Shown: piece after piece, positions 24,672 to 62,362 of the stretch
Position numbering within the stretch: position 1 is the stretch's first letter
Layout: each line of letters begins with the position of its first letter
NCBI GenBank assembly: GCA_044892505.1
Contig: CM097883.1
Location: forward strand, 175,398,001 to 175,462,000
Direction: 5' to 3'
Source of the DNA: Schmidtea nova
Taxonomy: Eukaryota
Length of the DNA: 64,000 bases
Translations under genes and position numbers: made by a program
Notes under the pieces: model-generated
Seen by the model: the letters and a program-made list of their open reading frames with translations, nothing else
Told to the model about the DNA's origin: nothing
Databases searched by the model: none

Positions 24672-26197
24672 ATGATACGCATGGAAAATCGGCAGAATAG
24701 TTTTCAGAATTCAGTCGTGGAGAAAACAGTTTCTCAGAGACAAAAAGATCAACTGTTACATGGTGGATACAGACTATGAAAGGTAGAATTCTTGCAGGTG
24801 GAAGCATTTCATAGAGGTGTTCCAGTAAAAATTTTTCTGGTCGTATTAAAGTTAGTAAATCTGATGAAGTTGTTGTGATAGAGCACAATGATGCACCAGA
24901 TCCGGATAAAAATGAAGAAACCAAGGTTGTTGCAGAAATTCGTCGACGAGCCGTGACAACCGTGGAGAGGCCTCGTCAAATAATCCAACAGAGCACAGCG
25001 TGAATTTTATTGGAAGTAGCCAGTCATGTTCCATAATATACAGCTTCTCAACGGACCATTCACCGACAACGAAAGAGATGCGCTGTTCCATAAGGTCCGG
25101 TGAATTCACTAGCTGGCATCACCATTCCAGATCAACTTAAACAAACAACGAAGAATGAAGATTTTGTGATGTGGGATTCTGGTGAAAACGAAGCGAAAAG
25201 AATTCTGATATTCGGTACTATGTCAAATCTGGATCTGCTTCAACAGTATAATCATTGGTTCATCGATGGAACATTCAATGTGGTACCAACAATCTTCTGT
25301 CAAGTGTTTACTATCCACACATTGATCGATGGTTCTGCATACCCTCTCGTTTATACATTATTGACAGACAAATAACAAGAAGGATATGAGCGTGTTATTC
25401 AAGAATTGCAGCCAACTCTAAATCCGGCGAGTATTATGTCGGATTTTGAGAAAGCCAGTCAGAATGCCTGTTCAACCGTATTTCCTAGCTCGCAGTTAGT
25501 TGGATGCTTGTTTCATCTCGGACAGAATCTCTGGCACAAGGTCCAAGATTTAAATCTTGCAACAGCATACCGTGATGAGAAAAATCTAAGAATGTATGTC
25601 AAAATGATGTTGACTCTAAGCTTTGTTCCTGCTGTTTTCGATGAATTGGCAAATGACTGCCCTCTTCTAATGGCACTATTGATCAACTACTGGGAAGATT
25701 CATACATAAGCCGACAACGAAGGGGCCTATGTGAAAATCCAAGGTTTCCTTTACAATTGTGGAATGCTCGTGCTCGCGTCATCGACAACCTACCACGTAC
25801 CAACAACTCCGTCGAAACATGGCACCGATCTTTTTGATTGCCAGCACCCGTCCGCCTACAAACTGGTTGAACAATTCCGTCAAGAACTGGATCACTACGA
25901 ATTGAAGATCGAAAGGTTTCGTTCAGGAATGAGGCAGCCAGAAGGATCCAAGTTAAAATATGTTCGCCAAAATCGACGACTGCAGGCTTTGGTCCCAACA
26001 TATGGAACAATTTTAGTGGGAGATTAAATAATTTAGTAAATTATTTAGTGTGTAGGTAAGTTAAGTGTGTTTTGAAATAAATATAGTAGATTTGAATTGT
26101 ATTTTATTTTACTTTTTGTGTGGCTATCTCGGCGGATTTTGAACTGTCGCGTTTTTTATTGCGCACATTTGTCCTTCACGCAATTGTGTGGGTGTCC
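24672..26197 (+). mobile_element. MULE DNA transposon with near full-length transposase pseudogene
   Basis: FLYWCH-like N-term; WFIDGTF, YPLVYTLL, MSDFEKA, GCLFHLGQNLW, PRTNNSVETWH, HPS across 24672-26027; GC-rich subterminal repeats ending GGTGTCC at 26197. Confidence 0.88.
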
Positions 26198-28559: not shown

Positions 28560-31310
28560 AACTACACAAGTTCAGCAAGACCTTCAGTTATTTTGTTTTA
28601 TAAAAAATTATTTGAAATCGTATTTTGCAAAATATGTAGATTCCAGAAAATTGGCGCAGCAAAAATTATGTTTTTGAATTCGTTGAATGTGTTGAAGTAA
28701 TAAAAAAAATTAATAAAATTCAAAATAAAATTATATTTATAACTAAATGAAGGAGAGATGTGAAAATCGAGTCAGGTATAGAATTGATAGTGTAAAGAAA
28801 TAAAAAGAGAACAAAGGCGTCAGAAAGTGTATCATTACGGGTGAAAAGCACAAAAATGTGAATTGTGAAAAATCGATAAAAGATTTAAATGTTCGAATTG
28901 AAATCTGGAAAATTGGTCATGGGGGAACAAGTAGCGAGGAATAACATGGTGATAACGGAATTTTCAGAAAGTGTCAAGAAGGGTGCGAAAAGGTACTTAG
29001 GAGTTAAAAACAAGAAAATGAAAGGAATTAATTAATTAATTAATTAACAAATAGAAAGAAATCCCGAGCTGGGTAAACAAAGAGAAAAGTAAACAGAAGG
29101 AAAATTTAGGCCCATTATCTGGTCACAATGATTAATGGGAGTAGGTCAAGAAAAGATAATATGTATAGAGAAGTCCAAGGCAGGCTATTAATTATTTTAT
29201 TTGGTCGGACCATTCCGGATGACAGCCGAGGCAGAGATGTGGAGCTGAATATCGGAACTGAGATTGGCTCAGCAAAACCCATTTGTCATCCAGATTTAGA
29301 AGAGTATAAAAGGAAGGGGAAAATCAGAACAAATTGGCAGTTTGCCTCAGCTAGGGACACGACGGAATTGAACTTAGAAAAGAGGAAAGGTAGAAAATAG
29401 GAAGTTAGGGAAAAAGAAAAGATAGAATCAGGAGATATTGAGGAAAACGAAAAGAGAATTAAATCGGAAGCGAATCTAATAAAATAAAGTAAAGAGGTGA
29501 ATCAAAGGAAGCTATTGACTAAAAAGGTGAATATTATTATAACTAATTGACAAAGAATCAATACCGAGCGGAGGATCGGTCAGACTCATAAAGACTTAGT
29601 TATTGATTATTTTGGGTTGAACGATATATTGTGTGATTCAATATACGTTAGGTAGTTTATTGTTTTGTTATTTACGATTAAAGGGACACGAGGAGTCAGA
29701 GAGTACCAACTCGAATATTAAAACCCAACAAATGTATCAATCACGTTTTCCAACAAGAAACTTTTAATGAAATAAGAATGGCACAATTTCATTGTTTTAT
29801 AGTGGATGAAAGCACTGATGTTTCAGTTAACAAAATGTTAATAATTTATATAAAATACCGGTTTGAATTTAATTACAAAACTGTTTTTGCTGGCATAATA
29901 CAGTTAAATTCATGTGACGCAAAATCGATTGTGGAGTCTATAAAATGTTTTTATAAAAAACTTAATCTGGATATGCAAAAGATGGTAATGTTAACATCTG
30001 ATGGAGCTGCAGTAATGTTGGGAGCTTATAATGGAGTTCCAGCACTTTTACCGCGAGAAACTTGCCACTTGACAGCTCAGCACTGTGTTGCTCATAGAGA
30101 AGATTTGGGAATCGATGATGTCTGGAAGGGTATACTTCTTATATCTCAAGTAGAAACGTTATTGCGAACTGTTTTGTACCATGTTCCATCGTTCATCTGT
30201 TAAAAACATCATTTTGAAGAAATGGCAAATCTAATGGATTGTGAAGCTTTGATGTTCCGACCTCTTATTGAAATACGCTGGCTTTCTCGTCATTTTGAGA
30301 TTATTCCGCTTATTCGAAATTATGACGTCTTGGTAGAATATTTCAAAGAAAAAATTGATAATTCAAATTCTGTTGATCGAACCGCGAAATACTGCTTTGC
30401 AGCTTTAAAAAATAATGTTAATCGTGTAACCTTGATCGCATTAAATGATGTTTTCACAAAATTGACAAAGTTATCAAAATATTTACAAAAAAGTGTTTTA
30501 TCACCAATGGAAGAGCATCAATATTGTAAATCGATCACAAAATTAAGAAGTCAGTACCTTGGTGATATAGTTTATTGGAGTGAGGATGTGAAAAAAAATC
30601 TCGAAGATGAAGGTAATAATAATATGCAAAAATTGTCTGGGATAATTCTATTTATTGAGAAATTATGCCACAATTTGGATAAAAGATTTCCTGATAGTGA
30701 CATGGACCTTTGGAATGCTTTTGATCAAAACGGCATTGTCAATACATCAGATTTTAATTATGGTGATGAAAATTTAAAAAAAAATAATATTGAAATATGA
30801 AGATCTCATCCCAAATATGAATAATAAAATAATAATGGAAGAGTATAAAGATTTAAAATATTTATTTACGGAAAAATTCAAAAATAATGGTCGTAATTTC
30901 AATGATCTACTTCAATTGGTTCTTCGTGAAGACTGTTTTCAAAATATAAAATATTTGTTTGATATTTGTGGAACCTTTCAAGCGTCGAGTGCTGATTGTG
31001 AAAGAGGTTTAAGAATGATGAATTTGATTAAAACAAAATTTAGAAATAGATTGGACGCTAATCATTTGAGTAACTTAATAAGAATAAAATCACACTTAGT
31101 TTCGGAAAATATTATTGATCTGGATAAAGTATACCATTACTGGAAGCGCAATAAAGACAGACGAGAAAAAAATAATCATGAACTTATATAAAAATAAATT
31201 ATGATTTTTCAAATAAAAAGAATTCCTAATTGCTTAATTTTTATTTAATTTTTTAATCGTGGCGCAATATTTTTTTTCTGCTCAGCTAAAAAAAATTAGA
31301 GGGAGCGTTG
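28560..31310 (+). mobile_element. hAT-B (DUF4371/ZNF862-like) transposon, frameshifted transposase
   Basis: VDESTD, SDGAAVMLG, HCVAHR, RWLS, SSADCERG...KTKFRNRL in ORFs 29778-31191; right TIR TTAGAGGGAGCGTTG ending 31310; left TIR not found. Confidence 0.88.
28690..29730 (+). mobile_element. Solo LTR (1041 bp) with AATG target-site duplication
   Basis: TGTTG...CAACA termini; AATG at 28686-28689 and 29731-29734; removing it restores the hAT-B frame (EFVECINHVFQQETFNEIRMAQF); TATAAAAG ~29305 and AATAAA ~29480. Confidence 0.85.
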
Positions 31311-46879: not shown

Positions 46880-47093
46880 ATAGTATTGTATTTATATTTA
46901 TTTATATCAAATTATATGACTCTTATAACGACATGAAAATTCGGAACTAATGATATAATCGAAAATGTTCATTTATCTCGTAATTCCCTTTCGCTCAATG
47001 ACCATCGTCTTTACCTCGCCGTGAAAGAAATCGCAAAGAAGTCGAAAAAATTATAAGCTCGTAAATAGCAACTCAATGAGTAATAGAAACGTC

Positions 47094-48091
47094 TGTTCGG
47101 TTCGTATCAGTGGTTTACGACGAACACAAAAAAAAATATATATATTTGATTTGATTATCGGACTCCAAACGATAATCCGCTTATATAATTATAAATAAAA
47201 TATATGTTTTAGGTTGGGTGTAAAGAAAACAAAACCTATTCTTTTTAATAAGATTTATTGCGATTTATGTATAACAATGTACAATATATTAAAATAAAAT
47301 AGCTGCAAAGCAAAAGTTAGAAAATCGGTTATTCAAACCGTCCTCAGAGTTTAAGAACGAAAGCTGGACCTAAAAGGCTCAACAGCTCCGACTAAATGAA
47401 AGGACAAAAGATGAGGGCTTTCCCGGTAGTTTAATCGCGATAGTGACAACCCAGAAATGGTTGTCACTGTGACCTAATAATTTCCCTTCTAATAATTTAT
47501 TATTTAACGAATTTACTGAAGGGGAAAAATAGTAATATAACTATTTCCCCGTGATCGATTTATAGAATTAAAGCAAACTAGAAAATTTACCAGCTAATAA
47601 AGATTATTCCAATTTCGGGAAATTATCACAAATGAAATTCAAGCTAAACTTCTCGTAATACTTCTGCCGTAAAAATTAATTTCTCCAATTCACAAATCTG
47701 TAAAACTTAGATTCTAAAATTCACTTCTGTCCAATTTATGTTTTGTAATTAGTTTAAATAGTAAAGTACTGCCTACACGGCCACGCACTAAAAGTTTACT
47801 ATTATTTTTAGTAATTCTTATTTACTATTTTTAATCTAAATTTATTATTATTATTACTATAATTAGTGTATATCTATTTAGAGCAGTTATTAATTACTAT
47901 ATTTATTTCTTTTCTATTTATAGTAATTATTTGTTACTAAAATTACTAATTAAGTATTTAATTATTACTATAATTATTATCTATCTATTTATAGTAATTC
48001 TTAATTGCTATTTATATTTATTTATTTATTTATAATATTTAATTACAAATTTATACAAAAACCCGAGATCCCTTGATCTCGAACCCTAACA
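47094..48091 (-). repeat. 3' LTR (998 bp)
   Basis: By eye identical to 60903-61903 except for a 1-nt shorter A run and one fewer TA unit. Confidence 0.97.
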
Positions 48092-48103
48092 TGTCTTCCC
48101 CCT
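48092..48103 (-). promoter_or_regulatory. Polypurine tract
   Basis: Minus strand AGGGGGAAGACA abutting the TGTT of the 3' LTR. Confidence 0.85.
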
Positions 48104-48396
48104 AACAAGATTTTCGTCCCGAAAATTAAAGCGGAAAAGGCAAGAAGGTTACGCAGCCAAAAATTAAAGAAAATAACAACACATACATATATACATAGAA
48201 TGCACTTGGCCAATAAAATAAAACAAAAATGAGTCTCATAAAACACATAATACATAAGTAATGTTAATCACAATCGATATCAAATAATAACTGTCTGTAA
48301 GCGTTGGATTGTTGATCGCATAGCCGAAATGCTAATTGTTTGATTGATAGTTGTCATAGCTTATAGCTAGACCTTGGATTGAACGTAGCAGAAATG

Positions 48397-50433
48397 CTAG
48401 TTATCCTTTGCGAATAGGTTTTGAGCTGCTCTCTTGCGAATATGCGCTTGCTCGTTCTTGATGCGATCTTCCACTATATCTGGTCTATAACTGACCACTA
48501 ATGTTTCGCGTGTTTCGACTTCCTTATATACCAAAGACGAAATCACGTATGATTTTCCGTTGGCCTCCAATACGCCATAGTAAGGGAAGTTTGAAACTGA
48601 TGATTGGTGTACCGGTTTCCCGTCGTATTCTTTTATCCGAGGTACCCAATTTCTCTCTGGTCGCTGCCAAAAACTAGGGTCTTCATTGTCCAAATCCTGG
48701 GGTGTCTTTGCTGAATTTCCTGTTCCAACGAAATCCCCTTCTCTTATAATAATAGGTTCGCCCTTAACCTCAGGAATCTGTTCCATATCGGGTGGAACGA
48801 ATGCTGTTTCGATTAAATCTTTGTCTTCCGTCGAGAGGAGATTTGGTACTTTCTTCTTGATCTTTAGATCTTGTAACCTTACAACAGGTTCTTGACTTTT
48901 CGTTGGGGGTGACTTTTCTACTGAAGTCAATTTTTTAAAAGTCTTAGTAACTTTTTCCAAGAGCTTGTTCTCTTTCTTTGGTGGATTTTCTGGCACGATC
49001 TTTGTAATTGTACGGCTGTCTCCGTGTAAAGTTAAACGCATCTCTGTTTGCTCCTCACCCTCGCTTTCGCAGGTGGCGTAATCGTCTTCATCAGCTAAGG
49101 ATATAGCTGGAGGGGATAGTGATTCTTCCTCAACTATCTTTTGCAATTTGGTTGATAATGGTTGTTCCTGGGGTAAGCTCTCAATAGCTTTCCTTTTACT
49201 CGTTTCTTGTGGCTGTATTGTATGAACCATTTTGACTTCTGATGTAATTGTCCCACTACGATTACCTGGGGTAATGTCATCTACCCAAACTTCTCTCAGT
49301 TTAAGGTAAATATTACGTGTCGTTTCCACGTCATTTTCCGTTTTCAGATCTGAACGGTTTAGTTCTTCCTTTTCGAGAATTGACTTTGATAAATACGCGA
49401 GTCGATAATGTCCGTTACATTTCTTTAGTTCTCTCGCTTCCAGGCATTTTGCTGCTCCTAGTTCCCTAATGCCCAAAACTCGTTGAGGGTGTAACTGGAC
49501 TGCTTCCAAGAAATCGTTGACTTGGAGACCTATTAGAATTTTCCCGTCACATAATTTTCTAATACGGTCTGCACAATCCTCTCCATCAAATTGTCCAATG
49601 ATTTCTTTTTCGGTCATACCATGCGCGTGCGATTGGTAATGTTTGACCTGGTTTCTGGGTGTAACCACCGTGTTTAATATTAAATCACCACAGTAGTTTG
49701 CTACCGAAACAGCCACCAAAGCTGGCTTTAAATAATCTCGCAAAGTTGCGTAATGCGCTGCAACAAAAATTGACAATCTATCTTCTTGATTGGGGTGCAG
49801 ATTCATCCGAACAAAGGATTTGAATGATTTGAGATCGTTCTCATTCACATTATAGGTCCAGGCAGGCTCATTTTTCCACAATGATTGCACTGCCTTGCTG
49901 GGTTCCAAAATCTCTAATACCACAATAGTATTATATCCGTCACATTGGATGGAGATATTCTTTTCTCTGCCATCTCCGTTACTAATTTCTAGAGTTGATT
50001 CTGGTTGAAGTAGGATGGGTCCTGTGGCTCCTGCCATGAAGATTGTAAAGGGTTTATTGATCGCGTGAATCAGGAGATGGTGAGTAAATGTTGATCTGTT
50101 AAATTCCGCCATGTGTTCAGTCAACCGGGTGTTCTCACGGCTGGTGATTGTGACTATGCACATTTGTCTCTTAGGTGATCCAAGAAACTTAAAATTGTTC
50201 GGGATGCCGGTGCAGTGCCCGTAATACCAATAGCGACGACCTTTCCGTGCCTCTGCGGATATCGCTTTTTCGATGTTTCGATAAATCAGTTTTTCCTTCT
50301 GTATTGTTTGCACATCGATAGTGCTGTAACGCTGCTTGTATTGTGACACTTGATGCTTCATATCTGAAAGAAAAATAATTAACGTTAATATCAGATATAC
50401 TGATATGCCAATATTGGCTAAAAAGAAATGCAT
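48397..50433 (-). CDS. ORF3 accessory protein (probable start ATG 50361, 654 aa): degenerate DEDDh exonuclease plus other domains
   Basis: ALVAVSVANYCGDLILNTVVTP...HGM...GKILIG...L..L...IL...ENDVETTRNIY follows the REX4/ISG20-type pattern; TTTTTCTTTCAG acceptor 2 nt before ATG 50361. Confidence 0.85.
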   Translation of the reverse strand: MHFFLANIGISVYLILTLIIFLSDMKHQVSQYKQRYSTIDVQTIQKEKLIYRNIEKAISAEARKGRRYWYYGHCTGIPNNFKFLGSPKRQMCIVTITSRENTRLTEHMAEFNRSTFTHHLLIHAINKPFTIFMAGATGPILLQPESTLEISNGDGREKNISIQCDGYNTIVVLEILEPSKAVQSLWKNEPAWTYNVNENDLKSFKSFVRMNLHPNQEDRLSIFVAAHYATLRDYLKPALVAVSVANYCGDLILNTVVTPRNQVKHYQSHAHGMTEKEIIGQFDGEDCADRIRKLCDGKILIGLQVNDFLEAVQLHPQRVLGIRELGAAKCLEARELKKCNGHYRLAYLSKSILEKEELNRSDLKTENDVETTRNIYLKLREVWVDDITPGNRSGTITSEVKMVHTIQPQETSKRKAIESLPQEQPLSTKLQKIVEEESLSPPAISLADEDDYATCESEGEEQTEMRLTLHGDSRTITKIVPENPPKKENKLLEKVTKTFKKLTSVEKSPPTKSQEPVVRLQDLKIKKKVPNLLSTEDKDLIETAFVPPDMEQIPEVKGEPIIIREGDFVGTGNSAKTPQDLDNEDPSFWQRPERNWVPRIKEYDGKPVHQSSVSNFPYYGVLEANGKSYVISSLVYKEVETRETLVVSYRPDIVEDRIKNEQAHIRKRAAQNLFAKDN

Positions 50434-50547
50434 AAATCTCGATTTACGGGATCTACTTATGCTGTAAGTTAATGCTACTCGGAGCTCAACAAGATTATAG
50501 ATTTTAATATATATATAAATACAAATATGCGATTTTATCTGTAATTG

Positions 50548-53500
50548 TCATAATCTCGTCATCATAATCCCATCAACCGACTCAATAGCCTGATTGAAGA
50601 ATAATTTCATCCAAACTCCCATTGCTATCAATGTAGTGATCATAGCTAATACTGCTGACGTAATAATCCATACCCCAATGGGTAATTTTCCCAAGTGAGT
50701 AATGGGGTTTACTTCATTAATTCCACACTGACAACTTTTAATATAGCTTTCTGTTGATACCGTTGGTTTTACCATTTTCAATCCTTTCAATCTCTGCCAT
50801 ATTGCAGGATGAATGACGTAACTTTCTTTCCGTATCAAGGATGTAACTGATTTCGTTGTCGTCGATGATTGAGGTAATTTCAAAGAGATTACTTCATAAA
50901 ATACCTCATTCCATTCATCGACTCCGGGCTTTTGTTTATTATTCATATAAGTGATATGAGCTTCCCACTCCACTGAGCTGTTCCACTTGAGATTTTGTTT
51001 CTCAATATCTTCGTTTAGCCACAATTCTTGTACTATTTCCTTGTCGGAGTGGATTTCTATCTTTACTCCATCCACTCCTTGTTTTGGTTGACTGAAGGTA
51101 ATCATACCTTGTTGGATATTTATCCTAACTTTCCTTTTGAAATCTGCTGTCTTCAGCTTCCATTGTGACTTGGAAAAATCTGACCATCGTCCAAACATAA
51201 AATGTTGAACAAGTATATCTAATAAATATTCCTTTTCTGCTCGTAAGTCCTTTATGACTTTCACTCTTGTGTTTGAATCCAATGTAAAATGGAAACAACG
51301 TCGTTCACAAAACGAGAACTTGAATTTGGTATCATTTTCAGCTAATGATATTATCCTAAATTCCTGGAAAGATCTTCTGAATGCGAGATCTTGGATTTGT
51401 ACCGCTGTTGGAACAAATGTTTTTACACATGATATGAGGCAACTTATTATTACCAAAAACGTAACTGATTTTGGCACGCCTCTTGATCGTAATGGATATC
51501 GGTCTGAGACTGTTTCTGACCCTTTATTCTCCTTTTTCTTAATCGAATCTTTCTCCGTGACCGCAACCTTCTTGCATCTGTTAGCATGTACCATTATTGG
51601 TTCAGCTTTTCTATTTGCTACTAATTGCAAGATTAAATTCGTGTCTGTGGTTCTCAAAACCTCATACGGTCCTTTGAAGTTTCTCATTAATTTAGGTGAT
51701 AAGCCCTTTTTATTATAATGGCTTTCCAACATCACCTTGTCTCCAACTAACATGCCATGTCCTTTGGCTTTCTTATCATGATAATCTTTCGACGCTTCCT
51801 GACTGAATTTTATACTAAGACCTGCTTTTGTCCATGCTTCTTGCATTCTTTCTCTCATTTCCATGAGATAATCCTCTTGGTCTAAATACTGCGTTGCTTT
51901 TGGGAAAAACAACAAGTCTATAGGCATTTTACTTTGCCTTAAATACATGAGATAGAACGGCGTTTGTCCCGTACCCTCATGAACAGCATTTCTGTATGCG
52001 AATAAGCATGATGGAATATGTATATCCCAATCCGTTTGCCCTGAATTTACGTATGATGCTAGCATATTTGCGAGCGTTCCGTTAAATCTCTCTACCAATC
52101 CGTCTGTTTGTGGATGATACGGAGAGGTATTCAATTTTAAAATGTCGAAATAATCATTTATTCCTTTTAACAGATTACTCATGAAATCTGCTCCTCTATC
52201 TGTTAGTAGTTTTGTAGGTACTCCATACCTAAAAACAATTTGCTCTACGAAAATCCTGGCTATCGTATCTGCCTTGTGATTCGGTATCGGATAAGCCTCC
52301 GGCCATTTTGTCAGGTAATCGCAAAATACCAATATGTATTTGTTACCACTATTTGATTCTTTGAATGGCCCTAAAACATCCATTGCCGTCATTTCCATCG
52401 GTGTGGATGGTACTGGCATTGGTTTCATTGGTACATGAGGTTTCTTCCCCGTATTTCTTCTGGTGATACAGATCTTACATGTCTGACACCATTCCTGTAC
52501 GTCTTGTTTGATTGTCGGCCAGAAAGATTTCTGCTTCAACCTTGACAATGTTTTCCTGGAAGACAAATGCCCTCCCAGTGCTCCATCATGATATTGTAAC
52601 ATCAAAGCTTCGCGATATTTCTTAGGGACCATTATGACATTATCCCTTACATCCACATATTTGACTAATCCTTCTTCTAAGATAAATTTGTCTCGATTTT
52701 TCTCCCAATATTTATTAAATTCCGTCGGTATGAACTTTGCTTCTAAAGCCTGTCTGATTTGGTTTATCTCTTCATCCGATTGTTGTGCTGCCATTAAATC
52801 CGCGAGTCTGTTTGCTTCTCTTGTAAGTGCGAAGATTGTTCCTTCTAATCTTCCTTCTTTGACATCTTCTGCTTCATCACCCTGGTCCATTCGAGAAAAT
52901 GCATCTGCATTCCCATTTTGATGTCCTTTTCGGTAATGTATTTCGATGTCGTACGGCTGCAAGATTAATGCCCATCTAACCAATTTTGATGTATCCATAG
53001 TATGCTTTGTTAACCACTGTAATGGTCTATGATCCGTATACACAATGATCTTTCGACCCCATAAATATGTCCTGAATTGGTGTATAGCATACACAATTGC
53101 TAATGCTTCTAATTCGATAACTGCGTAATTCTTTTCATGTGGTTTTAATCCTCTGCTAGCATACGCTATGGCATATTCGTCTCCTAGGTCATCTCTTTGA
53201 CCTAACACAGCACCAATACCCCGAGTGCTGGCGTCTGTCATGACCAAAAATTGTTTCTCAAAATCTGGGAACCGTAATATAGGAGGTTCCACGAGCATCC
53301 TCTTTAGCATATCAAATGCTTCCTGTTGCTCTTTTCCCCATACAAATTTGACATTTTTGCCCTCTAATTGTGTTAAAGGAAATGATATTGCTGAAAAGTT
53401 CCTGATGAACTTCCTGTAATATCCCACTAAGCCCAGAAACCCTTTAATATGTTTGACTGTCTTTGGCTCTGGAAAATTCTTTGCTTTCTCAACATTTGCT

Positions 53501-55068
53501 GGATCTGGTTTTACTCCATCCTTCGAGATAATGTGACCGACATAGACTACCTCTGATTCGGCCCATTTACATTTCGATGGTTTTACCTTAAGATTTGCAT
53601 TAATTAACCTTTTGAATACGTCCTCTAAATGTTCTAAATGTTTTTCCAAATCTGGAGAAAATACTATGATATCATCTATGTATACCATTGCATGATGAAC
53701 ATCCATTAACATTAGATTCATGGCTCTTTGAAACGTTGCCGGCGCTCCTGTGAGACCAAATGGCATTACTGTATATTCGAAGTGTCCAAGGCTTGTAGAA
53801 AAAGCCGTAATTGGTATTGTCTCCTCTTTTAACTTGATTTGGTAAAATCCCTTCTGAGCATCCATCACTGAGAAATATTTTGAATTTCTCCTGCGTCCGT
53901 AAATGTAATCCAGTAATGGTAATGGGTGACTATCCTTGCAAGTTGCTTCGTTTACCATTCGATAGTCGTTGCATAGTCGTACCGTTCCATCCTTTTTGGC
54001 CACCACTATCATTGGTGACTGGTATGGTGATTTACTATGCCTGATGATGTTATGTTTTAACATCAGTTTTACCTGCTTATCGACAGGTTCTTCCAAGCTA
54101 AACGGAATTCGATACGGTCTCAGTTTTATTGGTTTCGTATTGTTAAGAACAATTTCATGTTCCAACAAATTCGTCTTTCCCAAATCATATTCGTGCTTGG
54201 CGAATACCTGATCATATTTTCTTAATAACATGTTGACTTGGATATTCTCTCTTCGTGAAAGAGCTTTACTATTTGCCGTTGGCGCATCATAGTACTCGAT
54301 GTCTGGTTCTCTATTCTCTGCCTTCACTGTCAGGACAGATCCCCCAATCGGTAATTGATCCGACTTTGATACTCTCCCTACTCTTGTATCTGGATACAAT
54401 TTTAATGGTTTTATATCTAAATTGGCTACCCGAATTGGTATTCTGCCATTTTCAACTTTACCAACGCTATGCGTAATTGGTAGATTATATTTTGCTGAGA
54501 ACCTTTCATCTGGTTCGAATACTACTTCTCCTTCCCACTGTTTGCTAGTAGACACGAAACATACTGTTTCTGCTCTGGGTGGTATTATCATCGTATGGTC
54601 GATGAAAACTGTATCATCATTATAAACTTTTCTTTTCTTACCGATTGATCTAACTAACAATCCGGTAGCACAGTCAAATACAACTCCTTTTAATCTTCTT
54701 AAAAGATCCATTTCTAGTAGACATTCTACTGGACAAGTTCTCATGACTATAATATCATGACGAAATTCTTGGTCACATAGCTTGATGTTGCAAGCTAGAG
54801 TACCGATAATATTCAAGGATGTGCCTGTAGCACCTGTTAGCGAAACTCTTGAGGTTTCCATTGATTCCAATTCTTTTTGATTTAATAGTGTTGCCTCTAT
54901 GATAGTGCCGTCTGCTCCTGAATCTATCACTGCATTAACTGTGTGTCTGTTTATTTTTATCTTTATCATGGGTTTCTTATCCAAGTTTACCCCATTTGCC
55001 ATCAAAATAGTAGCATGCGTTATCCCGATGGTATTTGCTCTGAATTTCTCTGCTTCATCTGCTATCAC
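50548..55068 (-). CDS. pol: Pol polyprotein: aspartic protease, RT, RNase H, integrase, plus C-terminal type I membrane protein
   Basis: IDSGA; RLCNDYR, MPFGLTGAPATFQR, YIDD; TDAS...ELEALAI; HHCC, DVLGP, TDRG, DGLVERFNGTL, GPY; frame opens at GTG right after a TGA, first ATG at 55002. Confidence 0.97.
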   Translation of the reverse strand: MIADEAEKFRANTIGITHATILMANGVNLDKKPMIKIKINRHTVNAVIDSGADGTIIEATLLNQKELESMETSRVSLTGATGTSLNIIGTLACNIKLCDQEFRHDIIVMRTCPVECLLEMDLLRRLKGVVFDCATGLLVRSIGKKRKVYNDDTVFIDHTMIIPPRAETVCFVSTSKQWEGEVVFEPDERFSAKYNLPITHSVGKVENGRIPIRVANLDIKPLKLYPDTRVGRVSKSDQLPIGGSVLTVKAENREPDIEYYDAPTANSKALSRRENIQVNMLLRKYDQVFAKHEYDLGKTNLLEHEIVLNNTKPIKLRPYRIPFSLEEPVDKQVKLMLKHNIIRHSKSPYQSPMIVVAKKDGTVRLCNDYRMVNEATCKDSHPLPLLDYIYGRRRNSKYFSVMDAQKGFYQIKLKEETIPITAFSTSLGHFEYTVMPFGLTGAPATFQRAMNLMLMDVHHAMVYIDDIIVFSPDLEKHLEHLEDVFKRLINANLKVKPSKCKWAESEVVYVGHIISKDGVKPDPANVEKAKNFPEPKTVKHIKGFLGLVGYYRKFIRNFSAISFPLTQLEGKNVKFVWGKEQQEAFDMLKRMLVEPPILRFPDFEKQFLVMTDASTRGIGAVLGQRDDLGDEYAIAYASRGLKPHEKNYAVIELEALAIVYAIHQFRTYLWGRKIIVYTDHRPLQWLTKHTMDTSKLVRWALILQPYDIEIHYRKGHQNGNADAFSRMDQGDEAEDVKEGRLEGTIFALTREANRLADLMAAQQSDEEINQIRQALEAKFIPTEFNKYWEKNRDKFILEEGLVKYVDVRDNVIMVPKKYREALMLQYHDGALGGHLSSRKTLSRLKQKSFWPTIKQDVQEWCQTCKICITRRNTGKKPHVPMKPMPVPSTPMEMTAMDVLGPFKESNSGNKYILVFCDYLTKWPEAYPIPNHKADTIARIFVEQIVFRYGVPTKLLTDRGADFMSNLLKGINDYFDILKLNTSPYHPQTDGLVERFNGTLANMLASYVNSGQTDWDIHIPSCLFAYRNAVHEGTGQTPFYLMYLRQSKMPIDLLFFPKATQYLDQEDYLMEMRERMQEAWTKAGLSIKFSQEASKDYHDKKAKGHGMLVGDKVMLESHYNKKGLSPKLMRNFKGPYEVLRTTDTNLILQLVANRKAEPIMVHANRCKKVAVTEKDSIKKKENKGSETVSDRYPLRSRGVPKSVTFLVIISCLISCVKTFVPTAVQIQDLAFRRSFQEFRIISLAENDTKFKFSFCERRCFHFTLDSNTRVKVIKDLRAEKEYLLDILVQHFMFGRWSDFSKSQWKLKTADFKRKVRINIQQGMITFSQPKQGVDGVKIEIHSDKEIVQELWLNEDIEKQNLKWNSSVEWEAHITYMNNKQKPGVDEWNEVFYEVISLKLPQSSTTTKSVTSLIRKESYVIHPAIWQRLKGLKMVKPTVSTESYIKSCQCGINEVNPITHLGKLPIGVWIITSAVLAMITTLIAMGVWMKLFFNQAIESVDGIMMTRL

Positions 55069-55414
55069 TCAATTTTGGATTATATTCCTTGAATTTAGCT
55101 TTTATTGCTTCTAACGACTCGATAGGATACAGTTTCCCTTCATTTTCTAACGATAATGATATGCTTTTACCTGTTTCTCGAGCATCTTTGTCGGGAATTT
55201 GTTGATGTTTAGAAATGTACATTTTGTTTCTTGGTATGGTTAAAGCATAACTTGGCTTGCCTTCTCCTGATGTCTTTTGAAACTCTGGCGATTCCCCCTT
55301 TGGTGCTGTTGGTAAGCTTCTAAGATATGGCAATTGCATATATCTTGGGCTTCTTTTCAATCTAGGCGATGTTGTATTTAATTGCAAATTTCTGGTCTGC
55401 ACTATCGTATTCAT
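55055..55414 (-). CDS. 119-aa linker ORF overlapping the end of ORF1 and the start of pol
   Basis: Overlaps ORF1 by 53 nt and pol by 14 nt; preceded by a TTTCAG acceptor; no recognisable domain. Confidence 0.45.
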   Translation of the reverse strand: MNTIVQTRNLQLNTTSPRLKRSPRYMQLPYLRSLPTAPKGESPEFQKTSGEGKPSYALTIPRNKMYISKHQQIPDKDARETGKSISLSLENEGKLYPIESLEAIKAKFKEYNPKLSDSR

Positions 55415-58400
55415 CTTCTGAAATCATACTTTTGTCGAAAATCTGTTTTGTCGCTTCGTAAGGTGGTTGATAATCTCGATATTTCATTTTCCTTAATTGA
55501 TGATTCGGTTTTTTATTGTAGTTTCTTTTTCGACTTCTACTTTGCCTCTGAACTGTATTAAGAGAGTCTCCATTACCTCCTCCTTCCGAATTGTTATCGT
55601 CCCGATAACTTGTATTACCCTCCATTTCGATTCCAATAATCTCGTGTTTTACCAAGCTTCTCTGTTTGATTGTCTTTATTTCTTTACGATGATGTTTAAA
55701 CAATGCAAATTCCGCACACATAGGACACAATCCTAGTATCAACTTCCAAGACCATCCACCGATTTTGAATATGCTGTATGTGGAAATTAATTGTGTTATT
55801 ATTAACTTTAGAATTACGAATATTGCATATATTCCGGAGCAGCCTGCCACGAATATACCAAAATTGGTAAACCTTCCCCATATTTTCATCATCACATTTT
55901 TAGCTGCTTCTTTATAATGATCTGGACCGAATAATAAATTGTAATCTGGTCTCATTTCGTTTGCTTGGTAAATTGTTCTTATGATTTCAGTGATACCTCT
56001 TTCTCTTACTTGAGGGAATAGCAATGTCTGTCTTGCCTCCTCAATGTCTGCTGGAGTGTAAATTCCTCCTTGTGATAATTCATCGAGTGATTTAAATTCC
56101 ATGTTTTCCTCGAGTTTCGTGACTTCTAATGTTTCCACCTTTCTATTAGATGGTTTTCTGTCAGGTAATGAGATCCATCTATCATTTACCTTGTATAACG
56201 GTGATATTGCTGGATTGCAAATTGAAGGTTGAGGCTTTTGTTTTTCATCCAAAAGTCTCCTCGTTACTGGCATTACAAATCGTATTTTGTTTTGATATGA
56301 CACTGGTAATTCTAGAGTACATTCGTTATACCGTGTTAATTGTACCTCTATGGGTTGACATTGATAGCTGTATATAGCTTCCCCCATAATTCTGCCAAAC
56401 ATTCCATCTTCTAGCAACATAGGTGTCACTAGATCCGGATTCACGATTGATATCGCTAATCGATTTCGAACTATTTCGCGATTTAGTTTGCAATCATTGA
56501 GTATTACTTCCTGATACATTTCCTGCATTTGTCCTTGCAGATCATGATATAAATAATCTATTTTATTATTTATATAGTTCGTGATTTTGATATCCTGGCT
56601 GTGAATATTCTTGGCTTTTTGGATAAATGTTTTTGACAAATATAATCCTTTATAGTTGGTCTCGTACACCACTTTTCCGCATTTTGTCTTCTTATCTTTT
56701 CTGACAAATCTGATTGCATCTTTCTTATCTTCTGATACTAATACTAGAGGTGTGATTTCCTCACTAATATCCTCTTTTTGCTGTTTGTTGATCCTTTTCA
56801 ACGTCTTTTCTTTATCCCAAATTCTTTCTCTTTTGGGTAAATCTCGATACTTTGTCCCGTTCAACTTATGGAAATTAATTTTCTTTAGTAATGACAATTC
56901 GCAATGGTCTAGTATTTGATCGTATAATAATGTAATGACCCCTGTTCTGCAGCTTCCAAATTTCGCAAGGCACTGAGGGTGTGCCATTAATCTTCCTGAT
57001 AATACATCGAAAGTTCCTTCGTATTCTCTTAATTCGATTGAATAGTCCTCGATATCTACGACAAAACTTACCAACTCCGATCCGCGAGTTTTCTTTCTTC
57101 CCGTACAGGTACCATCTGATCCGATTGATCCTCCTCGTGTAATGGTTACTCCCAGTGTTTTTCCTACTTCCGCGGCGATGGTTACCTCGTTATCGATTCT
57201 TAAAGTACCTTTTCGAAAGGCGTCTAGACAATCCTCTGGTAATATGTTGACAGGTCTAGGTATTAGAGTGGCTGATAGAAAAGCTGTATAGCTGTGTGAA
57301 CCACAATAATATTCAAATGTCGCTCTTTGGACTCTACATTCTCTTATCTTAGTTCTGAAGAATTCACTTTCTTGGTAGACATAGTATTCGACCTTTTCTC
57401 CTGTTTGGACTTTCTCTGGATATGCCTCTTTGCACTCAATTGCATCCACGAGCGAATATATCCGAGCTAACTTTGGATCACTGCAATCAAACGCTGTCAT
57501 TGTGTTTGTCTGTTTCATTATCCCCATCATTACTAAAAACATTAATATCATATTCGTCATATTCCCCATTCCTCCATTTCCGAGGTGGTTGTTATTCATA
57601 ACCTCTTCCACAAATTCATATCGTGGTTTATGTTTCTCCTCTTCCCAGAAATTATTTTCACTCATCCACGTTCCGAGATAATGCTCCGTTATCTCCGTGA
57701 TCTGGTCTATTTCTCGATTAATAAGTTTCTTCTCATTGCCTGCGCGGGCTAAGGCATCTTGAATCAACATAGATAATGCTGTCACTATTTTTCCTTTAGA
57801 TAACCCATCTTGTATGAGTGTCTCTAACATACTCTGTATCTCGTTTTGAGGTACCATTTTAGGTAATCTCCTCATCGTCTTCGCGATTGACTGTGTCACT
57901 TTATCCACTTGAATTCCTTTAATCCGAGTGATCTGCCATTCCGGCTTTAATATTCCTATGATCTGTTTTAATCTCTTCCATGTCAGAGATTTTTCTGGTA
58001 TATGTACTCCCTCGTCTCTCATATCAACATCCCTGGCTATTCCTGACAGGGTTTTCATCTGAACCTGTTTAATGGTTTCTTGGTTTAATTGCTCCGTTGG
58101 GGGAGGTTTCATTTGATCTTTCCTAGGCCTTCCTCGCCTATCTTTCTTTGTCTGCCATGCTGGCCTGATAGTTTCTACCGCCTGAGAAGTTGAAGCTCCC
58201 ACGTTAGTTTCCTCATTATTGAGTCTGATTTCTTCTTCTCCGTGATTATCGGCATCGATATCTACATTAAATGGTTGTGTTTCGACGTTACCAGTGACCA
58301 TTTCATCTGGTAACCGTAATGCTGACCATTGAGATTCAGGTGGCTCTACGGGAATGATTGCTACCGTTGTAGTTTCAAATGGTAGACATCCCACATCTAC

Positions 58401-60821
58401 TAAATATTCATCATCATCCACTTGTCCTCCATGAATCATAATCAAGAATATACCGGTAGTCTGCCCAGTATCTATTAAATCTTTTCTCAACGTTATCACT
58501 TTGCTAAAACAACGATATAATCTCGTCATGGGTTCTTTTCCCGCTATTCGAATGTCTAAAGTTATCATGCCTTGTCGGTGTGCTTGATGACGTATTGCTG
58601 TTCCATTTTTCCTCATTAACATTTTTATTTCTGTTTGAAAAGAACTAGTTTCTTTTACTACAGGTAGTAATATAGGAATTATACTCTCCAATGATTCTAC
58701 TGGTATGCGCAATACCAACATCCAGTCTAATATTTCCTTGATTGTTTCTCCATCCCTCGGAGATTTCTGCAACTCTATCTTTAGACGTTGCTCTATTTGT
58801 TGGACTTCCTCCAACTGTGCAATTTCCATTTGTGTGAGTAGAAACACACTGTCTTGATCCACTACTGGGACCGATATTCCTGTCAGTTTTGTTGTGAGTT
58901 TCGTTACCCTTCCTGGTAATACACCATTTTGTAGTAGTGTTTCCCCAACTACTAACTTTTCTCCATATAGATAAAAATCATATCTATTATGTTTCAATTT
59001 CATCATTGTATCTGACAACTTATCTGTTCGACATCTTACATTCATGTCGATGTTAAACTCCTGCTCCTGAGGAAGTTTTATGTTTAAATGCGAATCCTGA
59101 AGATCCCATTCATGCTCCATTGCTGTTCCTATCTTTCGTAGGATTCTGTGTATGTCGCTATGATACTTTGGATCATCTTCGACCTGAGATATTAACTGTA
59201 ATATCTTTCCAATTTCACTATTCTTGATATCACCTTGTGATAATTTCTCTAATTCTCTAGTCAGTCTCTGCTGATACTCATATCTGGAATCCACCAGTTT
59301 TAAACATTTTGCTAGGGTATCTGACCCTTTCTTGGCCTTTGTTTCCTTGAACAAAGCCTGGTCGAACTCGCTCAGTATGGTACTCATACTGGGTTCGTCA
59401 TCATTATCAGAATTTGTTTCTGATTCTATTACCTCATGATTCTCGCTGCTGGAATCCATGGGTTCACTATTTCCTTGCTCGTCTGTGTAAGCATCATAAT
59501 TTTTCTCAGCTGAAATCATCAAAACTGTTCCTTGCCCAACTGTGTGAGCATCATCGCTTTCCTCAATGGGATTCATTATAACTGTTCCTCGCCCATCCAT
59601 GTGAGCATGATTTTTCTCAGCTGAAATCATAAAAACTGTCTCTTGCCCAACTGTGTGAGTCTCATTCTTTTCCTCTATTGTATTCATCAAAACTGTTCCT
59701 CGCTCATCTGTGTGAGCATGATTTTTCTCAGCTGAAATCATAAAAACTGTATCATCTCGATCCATTAGCCGTGCTAATCGATTTTTCTCCTCCTGGATTT
59801 CCATTTCCAGTTGTTGCAAATACGTCAATTCTTTATCGTGATTGACCATGAACGTAGTTTTTGGCTTGCTGATATTACCACCATTGGTAGTCCTATTATT
59901 CGTATTATTACTCTGATTTTGAGGACACGACCTCAGGATATGCCCGAATTTTCCACATCCGTGGCATTTTATCTTTCCTGATGAATTTACATCATCCCTT
60001 TTTATATTAAAATTCCCATTCGTTGGGAGATTCCTAACTCTACAAACGGAAGCAACATGCCCTCTGCGTTTGCATTTATCACACTGCAAGTTCGTGACTC
60101 TACAGTTCTCAACACTATGATTATTCATACCACATTTAGTACACTGAATACCCCTACGAGTATCAGCTACCTTCTTACTGTGGCAATCTTTTGATATATG
60201 CCCCTTCTTATGGCAGTTAAAACATTCAATTGCTGGCTTCTCATTATTTACCATAAATGAGGTAGCCTTTTCTAAGCTGCTTTCGATTACGACAGCTTTT
60301 CTTGTTAATTCCCAAAAATCATCTCCCGTGTGGAGAATCAATGCATTTCTCATTACATTTGTGAATCCAGCTAATAATTGGTCTTTAACCATAGCTTTAG
60401 TTGCATCATTCCAGGTAGTTCTGAGCCCAAATGCTCTTTCGGCTAATAACAATAATTGATAGGAAAATTCTCCTACATGCTCATTGGCATTCTGTTTTCT
60501 ATGGTAAAATTGTTGTCGGAAAATTCTGCTTGAATCTCCCGGTAATATTCTAGCCGTTAGTGATTCTCTCATCTTTTCCCATGTAGCTGGTTTATCTGCT
60601 GCTGGTAACGCCATAATATCATTGTAGTTTTCCCTTGCCATACCCTTAAGGTAAATTGGCAGTCTTTGTATCATTATTGCATCTGGATACCCATAGGCCT
60701 TTGCCATCTGATAATACTCTGACATAAACTCCGGAAATTCCCCTGGATCTCCGCTAAATGCCTTGACAGGTAAAGCGGGATATCTAGCAAAAACATTATT
60801 CTCTTCAGCCATGTCCTCCAC
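55362..60821 (-). CDS. gag: ORF1 (1819 aa): Gag capsid, 4 CCHC knuckles, spacer with UBL-like domains, chuvirus-type glycoprotein
   Basis: Capsid FSGD...Q..NEHVGEF; CX2CX4HX4C x4 at aa 200-299; internal hydrophobic signal aa ~1088-1108; AFDC, YCGSHS, GEAIYSYQC...ECTLELPV; TM at aa ~1651-1675. Confidence 0.95.
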   Translation of the reverse strand: MEDMAEENNVFARYPALPVKAFSGDPGEFPEFMSEYYQMAKAYGYPDAIMIQRLPIYLKGMARENYNDIMALPAADKPATWEKMRESLTARILPGDSSRIFRQQFYHRKQNANEHVGEFSYQLLLLAERAFGLRTTWNDATKAMVKDQLLAGFTNVMRNALILHTGDDFWELTRKAVVIESSLEKATSFMVNNEKPAIECFNCHKKGHISKDCHSKKVADTRRGIQCTKCGMNNHSVENCRVTNLQCDKCKRRGHVASVCRVRNLPTNGNFNIKRDDVNSSGKIKCHGCGKFGHILRSCPQNQSNNTNNRTTNGGNISKPKTTFMVNHDKELTYLQQLEMEIQEEKNRLARLMDRDDTVFMISAEKNHAHTDERGTVLMNTIEEKNETHTVGQETVFMISAEKNHAHMDGRGTVIMNPIEESDDAHTVGQGTVLMISAEKNYDAYTDEQGNSEPMDSSSENHEVIESETNSDNDDEPSMSTILSEFDQALFKETKAKKGSDTLAKCLKLVDSRYEYQQRLTRELEKLSQGDIKNSEIGKILQLISQVEDDPKYHSDIHRILRKIGTAMEHEWDLQDSHLNIKLPQEQEFNIDMNVRCRTDKLSDTMMKLKHNRYDFYLYGEKLVVGETLLQNGVLPGRVTKLTTKLTGISVPVVDQDSVFLLTQMEIAQLEEVQQIEQRLKIELQKSPRDGETIKEILDWMLVLRIPVESLESIIPILLPVVKETSSFQTEIKMLMRKNGTAIRHQAHRQGMITLDIRIAGKEPMTRLYRCFSKVITLRKDLIDTGQTTGIFLIMIHGGQVDDDEYLVDVGCLPFETTTVAIIPVEPPESQWSALRLPDEMVTGNVETQPFNVDIDADNHGEEEIRLNNEETNVGASTSQAVETIRPAWQTKKDRRGRPRKDQMKPPPTEQLNQETIKQVQMKTLSGIARDVDMRDEGVHIPEKSLTWKRLKQIIGILKPEWQITRIKGIQVDKVTQSIAKTMRRLPKMVPQNEIQSMLETLIQDGLSKGKIVTALSMLIQDALARAGNEKKLINREIDQITEITEHYLGTWMSENNFWEEEKHKPRYEFVEEVMNNNHLGNGGMGNMTNMILMFLVMMGIMKQTNTMTAFDCSDPKLARIYSLVDAIECKEAYPEKVQTGEKVEYYVYQESEFFRTKIRECRVQRATFEYYCGSHSYTAFLSATLIPRPVNILPEDCLDAFRKGTLRIDNEVTIAAEVGKTLGVTITRGGSIGSDGTCTGRKKTRGSELVSFVVDIEDYSIELREYEGTFDVLSGRLMAHPQCLAKFGSCRTGVITLLYDQILDHCELSLLKKINFHKLNGTKYRDLPKRERIWDKEKTLKRINKQQKEDISEEITPLVLVSEDKKDAIRFVRKDKKTKCGKVVYETNYKGLYLSKTFIQKAKNIHSQDIKITNYINNKIDYLYHDLQGQMQEMYQEVILNDCKLNREIVRNRLAISIVNPDLVTPMLLEDGMFGRIMGEAIYSYQCQPIEVQLTRYNECTLELPVSYQNKIRFVMPVTRRLLDEKQKPQPSICNPAISPLYKVNDRWISLPDRKPSNRKVETLEVTKLEENMEFKSLDELSQGGIYTPADIEEARQTLLFPQVRERGITEIIRTIYQANEMRPDYNLLFGPDHYKEAAKNVMMKIWGRFTNFGIFVAGCSGIYAIFVILKLIITQLISTYSIFKIGGWSWKLILGLCPMCAEFALFKHHRKEIKTIKQRSLVKHEIIGIEMEGNTSYRDDNNSEGGGNGDSLNTVQRQSRSRKRNYNKKPNHQLRKMKYRDYQPPYEATKQIFDKSMISEDEYDSADQKFAIKYNIA
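59440..59760 (-). repeat. In-frame 111-bp (37-aa) tandem repeat in ORF1, ~2.5 copies
   Basis: CTCAGCTGAAATCAT at 59505, 59616, 59727; protein TVFMISAEKNHAH..RG / TV(L/I)MN.IEE...HTVGQ. Confidence 0.95.
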
Positions 60822-60881: not shown

Positions 60882-60899
60882 ATCACGTCGGGCTCACCA
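60882..60899 (-). promoter_or_regulatory. Primer-binding site, tRNA-Trp-like
   Basis: Minus strand TGGTGAGCCCGACGTGAT, 3 nt from the 5' LTR; differs at one position from the tRNA-Trp PBS TGGTGACCCCGACGTGAT. Confidence 0.85.
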
Positions 60900-60902
60900 A
60901 AA

Positions 60903-61903
60903 TGTTCGGTTCGTATCAGTGGTTTACGACGAACACAAAAAAAAAATATATATATATTTGATTTGATTATCGGACTCCAAACGATAATCCGCTTATATAA
61001 TTATAAATAAAATATATGTTTTAGGTTGGGTGTAAAGAAAACAAAACCTATTCTTTTTAATAAGATTTATTGCGATTTATGTATAACAATGTACAATATA
61101 TTAAAATAAAATAGCTGCAAAGCAAAAGTTAGAAAATCGGTTATTCAAACCGTCCTCAGAGTTTAAGAACGAAAGCTGGACCTAAAAGGCTCAACAGCTC
61201 CGACTAAATGAAAGGACAAAAGATGAGGGCTTTCCCGGTAGTTTAATCGCGATAGTGACAACCCAGAAATGGTTGTCACTGTGACCTAATAATTTCCCTT
61301 CTAATAATTTATTATTTAACGAATTTACTGAAGGGGAAAAATAGTAATATAACTATTTCCCCGTGATCGATTTATAGAATTAAAGCAAACTAGAAAATTT
61401 ACCAGCTAATAAAGATTATTCCAATTTCGGGAAATTATCACAAATGAAATTCAAGCTAAACTTCTCGTAATACTTCTGCCGTAAAAATTAATTTCTCCAA
61501 TTCACAAATCTGTAAAACTTAGATTCTAAAATTCACTTCTGTCCAATTTATGTTTTGTAATTAGTTTAAATAGTAAAGTACTGCCTACACGGCCACGCAC
61601 TAAAAGTTTACTATTATTTTTAGTAATTCTTATTTACTATTTTTAATCTAAATTTATTATTATTATTACTATAATTAGTGTATATCTATTTAGAGCAGTT
61701 ATTAATTACTATATTTATTTCTTTTCTATTTATAGTAATTATTTGTTACTAAAATTACTAATTAAGTATTTAATTATTACTATAATTATTATCTATCTAT
61801 TTATAGTAATTCTTAATTGCTATTTATATTTATTTATTTATTTATAATATTTAATTACAAATTTATACAAAAACCCGAGATCCCTTGATCTCGAACCCTA
61901 ACA
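60903..61903 (-). repeat. 5' LTR (1001 bp)
   Basis: See 3' LTR. Confidence 0.97.
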
Positions 61904-62362
61904 CGTCTACATTGTATTATCCTTTCAGATCATACTCGATATTATACAATTGAACTTTACTTCAAGTTGCAAACATTATTAACTGAAACTTCTGAAAATT
62001 GTATCTAAAATTTTAGTATTCGAAACTCTCAAAAAACATGTCTTGAAACTTTATATATAAAAATTTTTGTTATTATCAAAAAATTCGCATATGATCGAAT
62101 CTAATTTTTGGAAAAATAAAAATTTATTTTTATAATAATATATTATGTAAAAATTTAGATTAAATTATTAGAATATAAAAATTTAAAATCGTAAATTTTA
62201 TTACTATATTAGAATATAAAAAAATCTTTTAAATCAAAATCTTTATTATTATATATATTTTAAAGAATTTCAAATTTAGTTTTATGTAGAAAAATTATAT
62301 TATAATTATAATTTTATTTTTAAAATTATTACCTTTCACAACATCACGAAATAATAATACTT

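Follow-up and report, generated by a model that had tools for sequence, protein, structure and literature searches.

Organization of the element

The window analyzed here, a 64,000-nucleotide stretch of the planarian Schmidtea nova (contig CM097883.1, positions 175,398,001 to 175,462,000), harbors on its minus strand a long terminal repeat (LTR) retrotransposon of 14.8 kb that encloses the region under study, a coding sequence in which a viral-type fusion glycoprotein stands between Gag and Pol (Table 1). Besides LTRs with TG...CA ends, a target-site duplication, a tRNA primer-binding site (PBS), and a polypurine tract, the element has a Gag with CCHC zinc knuckles and a Pol with the order protease (PR), reverse transcriptase (RT), RNase H (RH), and integrase (IN), an order common to BEL/Pao elements as well. 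No BEL-specific Pfam family matched the element's proteins, and Pfam's Ty3_capsid was matched weakly by a distant relative (L106). Judged by these characters, it is a recently active gypsy (Metaviridae, Ty3/gypsy) retrotransposon. This agrees with a preliminary description of the same DNA, which had placed the glycoprotein 5' of pol in a gypsy element, an arrangement seen here in the Pfam order of Pol and in intact copies. The element family is young and abundant: its LTRs are free of mismatches, there are at least 73 near-identical copies, and at least five families occur in one genome.

Table 1. Features of the retrotransposon, in the direction of its coding strand (window coordinates; aa, amino acids of the first open reading frame; TM, transmembrane segment; FN3, fibronectin type III)
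Feature	Coordinates	Strand	Evidence
Target-site duplication, 4 bp	61904..61907	.	Identical 4-mer at 47090-47093, flanking both element ends
5' LTR, 1,001 bp, TG...CA	60903..61903	-	99.7% identity to 3' LTR, 0 mismatches, 1 gap
Primer-binding site, tRNA-Trp	60882..60899	-	Sequence; complement behind T-loop in host genes; ARAGORN: tRNA-Trp(CCA)
Gag, capsid-like region and four CCHC zinc knuckles (aa 1-296)	59925..60812	-	Retrotrans_gag E 0.0075 (weak), zf-CCHC, cysteine pattern
Two tandem helical hairpin and ubiquitin-like units	58350..59300	-	Mutual and cross-family alignment; fold match of second unit
Probable Bcl-2-like domain	57645..57890	-	Weak, recurring profile matches; helical in model
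Internal signal 1 (aa 1088-1104)	57501..57551	-	Hydrophobic run, small residues, [AG][FY]DC in 8/8 families; cleavage predicted
Class III fusion glycoprotein ectodomain (aa 1105-1647)	55872..57500	-	PF24664, Foldseek, purifying selection
Glycoprotein TM anchor (aa 1648-1682)	55767..55871	-	Hydropathy 2.28; helix in model
Cytosolic tail and linker to protease, with two breaks in window copy only	55069..55766	-	Gaps against 6/6 copies; open into PR in 18/20 loci
Pol: protease, RT, RNase H, integrase, gypsy order	51481..55068	-	RVP, RVT_1, RT_RNaseH, Integrase_H2C2, rve
Internal signal 2, adjoining integrase end	51394..51480	-	Hydropathy 2.15; matching segment after basic stretch in 8/8 families
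All-beta ectodomain, probably tandem FN3 repeats	50686..51393	-	Low-confidence model, Foldseek, repeat-unit profile
Terminal TM and short tail ending T-x-L; stop TGA, then CAA TTA	50548..50685	-	Hydropathy, copy alignment
ORF3, ISG20-type DEDDh exonuclease fold, catalytic residues lost in window family	48397..50547	-	ISG20L2 E 8e-13; alignment
Polypurine tract	48092..48104	-	Sequence
3' LTR, TG...CA	47094..48091	-	LTR comparison

A single frame from Gag to the polyprotein end

The window copy has three long frames, the first of which is an open reading frame (ORF) of 1,816 aa (60812-55362, minus strand). A search of the same genome scored 73 matches at 99-100% identity, from 3,967 candidates, and in 29 of these 73 copies the open frame is 3,380 codons or longer. 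Furthermore, the protease motif shares the open frame of the glycoprotein in 18 of 20 fetched loci, the exceptions being the window copy and one other. Six intact copies, chosen for their long frames, encode 3,421-3,426 aa each, from Gag through integrase and further, five of them with an identical stop. Compared with all six, the window copy is broken by gaps near 55,400 and 55,050, which also appear against contigs from four sequencing runs. The first ORF of the window thus ends at 55362 because of breaks that are private to this copy, and the window copy is defective for Pol. Since the sister copies stay open through Pol and the gaps are private, the natural product is best read as one polyprotein in a single frame, Gag-X-Env-Pol-Y, where X is the region between Gag and the fusogen and Y a post-integrase membrane protein. 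Its domain order, as assigned from sequence and models, is Gag, two ubiquitin-like units, Bcl-2-like domain, signal, fusogen, TM, PR-RT-RH-IN, second signal, probable FN3 ectodomain, TM, and PDZ-type tail. Consequently, the preliminary description of a glycoprotein fused to the C-terminus of Gag holds as regards the shared frame; the fusion is not direct, with some 790 aa lying between, and the glycoprotein does not end the ORF, as Pol continues in frame in intact copies. Programmed frameshifting between the first ORF and pol was rejected because the breaks occur in the window copy only, and a crude scan of the glycoprotein-protease linker of the window family found no slippery heptamer.

The same layout was found in related families (the window family being A). 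The frame is intact in 7 of 10 loci of families B and C, partly selected for long frames (3,359-3,367 aa), in both of the two loci of family E, and, for family D, in 3 of 10 loci, the remainder of which are decayed or partial relatives. Five metagenome loci were found, one of which (L107) was too short and was left out of the analysis; in L103, L104, and L106, Gag-side sequence shares one frame with the glycoprotein and Pol. Gag-glycoprotein fusions also occur in the database proteins P0004-P0006. The single-frame layout is thus a property of the clade. No relatives were found in viral_contigs. The distant relative L106 (27% glycoprotein identity) has a single frame of 2,693 aa, with a much shorter spacer between Gag and glycoprotein.

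The fusion glycoprotein and its history

The glycoprotein matched the Pfam family Monjiviricetes_fusion (PF24664) with an E value of 2e-90, and the Atlas concurs. As the score was 304 bits against a curated cut-off of 27, and 0 of 14 control genomes matched, this is not a chance similarity. A structural model of aa 690-1691, built from a 10-row alignment, matched herpesvirus gB in the PDB by Foldseek (E 6.8e-11). In BFVD its best match was the chuvirus-type G of Tacheng tick virus 4 (E 7.5e-30, 20% identity). A PDB sequence search with the glycoprotein gave no real match. The assignment to class III fusogens is secure, with membrane fusion as the predicted activity. The fusion glycoprotein of chuvirus (Monjiviricetes) type announced in the preliminary description was thereby confirmed against both chuvirus G and class III fusogens, and the motifs it had listed all lie in frame within the 1,816-aa ORF. 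The TM and the internal signal that it had placed on either side of the ectodomain were recovered as well; in the window copy the signal appears as a hydrophobic run at aa 1088-1099, followed by AFDC at aa 1107-1110. Signals were called from hydropathy rather than by a signal-peptide predictor, and signal 1 is strong in related families (2.2-2.45).

The ectodomain, with 14 cysteines, is under purifying selection and is conserved as strongly as the capsid. It is 60% identical between families A and D; between B and C, dN is 0.09 and dS 2.7, a value at which synonymous sites are saturated. Trees of the glycoprotein and of RT-RH-IN for eight families, restricted to relatives of the element and leaving out chuvirus, other viral, and BEL sequences, gave the same three groups plus L106, the branching among groups being unresolved in the glycoprotein tree. 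Since the fusogen and Pol trees agree, the comparison of glycoprotein with RT-containing Pol that the preliminary description had called for lends no support to a recent independent capture. As for descent from Chuviridae in particular, the top BFVD rows are a mix of chu-, qin-, xinmo-, and rhabdo-like viruses at 14-20% identity, and identity to viral glycoproteins overall is just 8-20%. Furthermore, the same arrangement has been reported in three phyla, with an ancient association argued (PMC13524379). It is therefore highly improbable that the Gag-glycoprotein ORF naturally ends at 55362, with pol separate and a glycoprotein captured recently and independently from a chuvirus. The stop is real in the window copy and the best viral structural matches are chuvirus-like, but the private breaks refute the first part of this explanation, and the low viral identity, the congruent trees, and the wide distribution of the arrangement speak against the second.

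Domains between Gag and the fusogen

The roughly 790 aa that separate the last CCHC knuckle from signal 1 hold the two ubiquitin-like units and the Bcl-2-like domain. In a structure search, the model of the second unit matched ubiquitin folds (Z 10.9, root-mean-square deviation 2.1, 77 residues aligned); this was the one unit folded, and the first was assigned by alignment. The Bcl-2-like domain is probable from profile comparisons, in which the Pfam E values (0.018 for the window copy and 0.00075 for family B) both fall short of the curated cut-off and Bcl-xL chains were matched at E 0.005-0.04. The Bcl-2 fold was not recovered in the structure search of the long model, whose match list was filled by the ubiquitin-like domain. 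Signal 1 starts about 30 residues past this domain, and Bcl-2 proteins carry a tail anchor at the corresponding position.

Calcium-channel matches in the profile searches of the Bcl-2 region were discarded, as they derive from P0009, a database protein in which a calcium-channel fragment is attached to a close relative of the window glycoprotein, probably a gene-prediction chimera. Past the knuckles, at 59438-59716, the ORF contains an imperfect 57/111-nt repeat that encodes a repeated hydrophobic peptide, itself a possible protease site; its copy number differs among copies.

A second membrane protein after integrase

Pol has an insert of about 200 aa between PR and RT, with no dUTPase match in Pfam, and the polyprotein continues beyond integrase. 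In all eight families this extension runs from a basic stretch through a signal-like segment and an ectodomain to a terminal hydrophobic segment, and signal and anchor segments alternate in all eight. The ectodomain model is all-beta (pLDDT 46), and its best Foldseek rows are FN3 pairs at E 0.05-0.4, none of them significant. Profiles of the whole ectodomain gave nothing clear; FN3 rows came once single repeat units were aligned. The profile of ten such units, with an L-x5-Y-x3-I pattern, returned 21 PDB rows (best E 0.0074), 18 of which are FN3 proteins (ROS, neogenin, IGF1R, NCAM2, contactin, and others). The ectodomain is thus probably made of tandem FN3 repeats. No homologue of the post-integrase domain was found in the protein database or the Atlas, and in a wide VIA structure search the match list was filled by its TM helix.

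The polyprotein ends in T-x-V/L, a class I PDZ-binding pattern, in seven of the eight families, against a background of 2.6%. These seven ends are related and are therefore not seven independent events. The second membrane protein is likely receptor-like. Our literature searches returned no report of a post-integrase FN3 membrane protein; figures, Repbase entries, and further supplements could show one.

The post-integrase segment of L106 is cysteine-rich and unrelated-looking and is without the PDZ-type end. Between its fusogen and its last protease motif, L103 has an additional module of signal, FN3-like domain, and TM (4349-5371), together with further copies that resemble the protease; repeated protease domains also occur in L104, P0004, and P0005.

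Predicted topology of the polyprotein

We favor, with moderate confidence, a polyprotein threaded through the endoplasmic reticulum (ER) in the style of flaviviruses and processed by signal peptidase together with the element's protease; this would give equal synthesis of Gag, Env, and Pol and package Pol via Env. This reading builds on the observed single frame, domain order, fusogen family and fold, and conserved signal-like segments and anchors. Translation would begin in the cytosol with Gag, the two ubiquitin-like units, and the Bcl-2-like domain; signal 1 would then direct the glycoprotein into the lumen, where its TM would stop transfer, so that PR-RT-RH-IN would be made in the cytosol. 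With signal 2, translocation into the lumen would resume for the FN3-like domain, and the PDZ-type tail would stay cytosolic behind the last TM. With four membrane crossings, the glycoprotein and the FN3-like domain would be lumenal, and the Gag-Ubl-Bcl-2 portion (Ubl, ubiquitin-like unit) and Pol cytosolic. Two lumenal cuts by signal peptidase would yield a Gag-Ubl-Ubl-Bcl-2 piece, for which signal 1 would double as tail anchor, a fusogen with Pol on its cytosolic tail, and the receptor-like protein. Being on that tail, Pol would enter the particle on the fusogen and not on Gag. Trimerization of the fusogen would bring the protease to a high concentration, and the protease would then release the capsid and the enzymes along with a membrane-anchored death suppressor of Bcl-2-like type; the outcome would be enveloped particles that pass between cells. 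As Pol is in frame with Gag and Env in intact copies, a Gag:Env:Pol ratio of 1:1:1 is predicted. The structural polyproteins of flaviviruses and alphaviruses likewise begin with the capsid and are processed through internal signals, host signal peptidase, and a viral protease. These viruses have class II fusogens and RNA replication and no homology to the window element, and the analogy is one of mechanism only.

Several observations weigh against this reading. Open frames are shorter than 3,380 codons in 44 of the 73 scored copies, and the metagenome relative L105 has a single TGA directly before signal 1 (3057-3061), after its Bcl-2-like region, which marks either a dead copy or a regulated stop. 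Signal 1 is weak in the window family (hydropathy peak 1.47 against a cut-off of 1.6), the glycoprotein model has a pLDDT of 55 and low TM-scores, the Bcl-2 assignment is weak, and so is that of FN3, with no Pfam FN3 match in the post-integrase ectodomain and no E value better than 0.007. Finally, retroelements do not usually make as much Pol as Gag, and there may therefore be a regulatory step that escaped detection.

With the same topology, the fusogen could instead work intracellularly or at cell contacts, as a membrane scaffold, in ER budding, or in cell-cell fusion, with no free infectious particle. Junction targeting would suit a PDZ-type tail and an FN3-like ectodomain, and the infectivity of such envelopes has been called unclear (PMC13524379). 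A complete class III ectodomain, with its cysteines, under purifying selection fits a fusion role, but it does not distinguish cell-free spread from spread by cell contact. On balance, we regard a purely intracellular or contact-bound fusogen as quite unlikely.

ORF3 and the question of splicing

ORF3 follows the polyprotein. Its catalytic motifs look intact in families B, C, and E and in L103 and L104, the first of which has an RNase_T match in Pfam, and are lost in A and D. The ORF3 ATG at 50,361 is immediately preceded by a T-rich acceptor-like site (about 50,364), and the frame is open from the Pol stop too. Acceptor-like sites stand 2-8 nt before the ATG in families A, B, C, and D and in four A-like loci; by a crude scan, the site is strongest in A, the sole one in D, and below the cut-off in B, C, and E. 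ORF3 is thus most likely made from spliced RNA. The Pol stop at 50548 reads TGA CAA TTA, a CARYYA readthrough context that functions with UGA (PMC4132726). From this motif an open frame leads into ORF3 in the window family and in L089, L093, and L101 (three of five motif-bearing related loci); in L091 and L097 the motif and ORF3 are in different frames, and families B, C, and D do not have it. Readthrough into ORF3 may thus be a side possibility of the A lineage only; splicing is the simpler route, and both may operate. We gave less weight to a TM at the beginning of ORF3, since the segment lies 5' of the acceptor-like site and may be a chance translation of AT-rich spacer.

Splicing also bears on the ratio of the products. 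If spliced or truncated RNAs uncoupled the parts of an otherwise real single frame, giving excess Gag or a fusogen-less Gag-Pol, the 1:1:1 polyprotein would be a minor product. Capsids usually require more Gag than Pol, ORF3 suggests that the element does have splicing, and a few T-rich acceptor-like sites lie inside the long ORF. However, none of the internal sites is shared in position between family groups, no acceptor-like site common to families was found by the crude scan before signal 1 or before the protease, and the one common to B, C, and E overlaps a conserved peptide. Such uncoupling therefore seems unlikely to us.

Going beyond the topology of the ER-threaded polyprotein, we tentatively raise the possibility of a clade of animal retrotransposons that build an enveloped virus from one such polyprotein. 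Pol would be packaged as the tail of the fusogen, the signal of the fusogen would also serve a viral Bcl-2 as tail anchor, and a second envelope protein (FN3, TM, and PDZ tail) would be cut from the integrase end as a partner in attachment or junction targeting. In a sub-lineage, the leaky TGA-CAA-TTA may tether a pseudo-exonuclease to this second envelope protein.

Relation to known elements

Burro elements are reportedly treated by Grohme 2018, and nematode gag-env-pol elements by Sacco 2022. The planarian element Burro encodes one polyprotein with Gag-CCHC, Ubi2/SUMO, BCL2, Env, PR, dUTPase, and RT, and was presented as the first case of an in-frame env between gag and pol, with matches to mononegavirus fusion proteins (PMC6431247). 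The window element shares with Burro/GYPSM1 an in-frame Gag-CCHC, ubiquitin-like and BCL2-like parts, Env, and PR-RT-RH-IN, the Bcl-2 part being weak here. It differs in size, with 14.8 kb, 1-kb LTRs, and about 3,420 aa against more than 30 kb and 4,873-5,140 aa, and no BIR, MATH, or ankyrin match was found in it by Pfam. Moreover, the Env of Burro is tied to gypsy Env, so that the fusogen class may differ, and the text of that paper, as distinct from its figure, mentions no post-integrase membrane protein in Burro, which was compared by description (PMC6431247).

Elements with GAG-ENV-POL order and a gB-type glycoprotein have been described from Platyhelminthes, Nematoda, and Bryozoa, and arthropod gypsy elements with chuvirus-like glycoproteins from the same source (PMC13524379). 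The flatworm 'ancient errantiviruses' resemble the window element in this order, in the gB-type fold, in being multi-copy, and in a similar span; domains I-II of the Smed_errantivirus_4 glycoprotein are about 64% identical to the window glycoprotein (117/183, counted by eye), and families B, C, and E resemble Smed_errantivirus_1/2, also judged by eye. The main text, as far as available, mentions no polyprotein, fused or in-frame layout, fibronectin, exonuclease, or Burro, and lists no PBS for the Smed elements; the window element adds a tRNA-Trp PBS, the single frame, the FN3/TM/PDZ module, and ORF3 (PMC13524379). By these comparisons, the window element belongs with the flatworm GAG-ENV-POL errantiviruses; it lacks the size and the BIR/MATH domains of Burro but seems to work like it. 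The mosquito element Anakin is likewise an LTR element with a Chuviridae-like glycoprotein (PMC10084718, PMC12440569, PMC13524379); compared by description, it is BEL/Pao, unlike the gypsy element of the window. The gypsy-like rotifer elements Vesta and Juno likewise have an accessory exonuclease ORF on their 3' side, for which spliced messages are the typical route of expression, but theirs is DEDDy and that of the window element of ISG20/DEDDh type (PMC5408684).

An in-frame fusogen joined to Gag upstream of pol has been in print since 2019 and so is not new alone. For flatworm elements, the order of capsid, fusogen, and enzymes has been published before; the novelty lies, as far as these comparisons reach, in the second, conserved membrane protein and in a Pol predicted to be borne by Env. 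If the topology is true, these elements depart from the general rule by which Gag brings Pol into the particle, their envelope gene cannot simply be shed, and they have two envelope proteins, a fusogen and a receptor-like partner, as in herpes- and paramyxoviruses. As the family is young and abundant in a planarian, any cell-to-cell movement of invertebrate envelope-bearing retrotransposons would be observable in an animal with RNA interference and adult stem cells.

Primer tRNA genes and the rest of the window

tRNA-Trp is the primer tRNA in every family of this genome with a PBS read. The tRNA-Trp genes form a tandem array with a period of about 282 bp on host contig G000:C3, from about 128.02 Mb (L112-L114). 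The tRNA-Trp pattern had 1,984 matches, on one strand throughout, and the first 100 listed all lie inside the tandem array. Elsewhere in the window, fragments of other mobile elements were found at 1012-1797 (-), 22894-23946 (-), 25376-25837 (+), and 29682-30800 (+), with domains of protein-primed DNA polymerase B, hAT dimerisation, DUF4371, and MULE transposase among these four pieces. Long inverted arms, 85-89% complementary and about 2.6-2.8 kb apart, occupy 18245-21249 and probably mark a non-autonomous DNA transposon.

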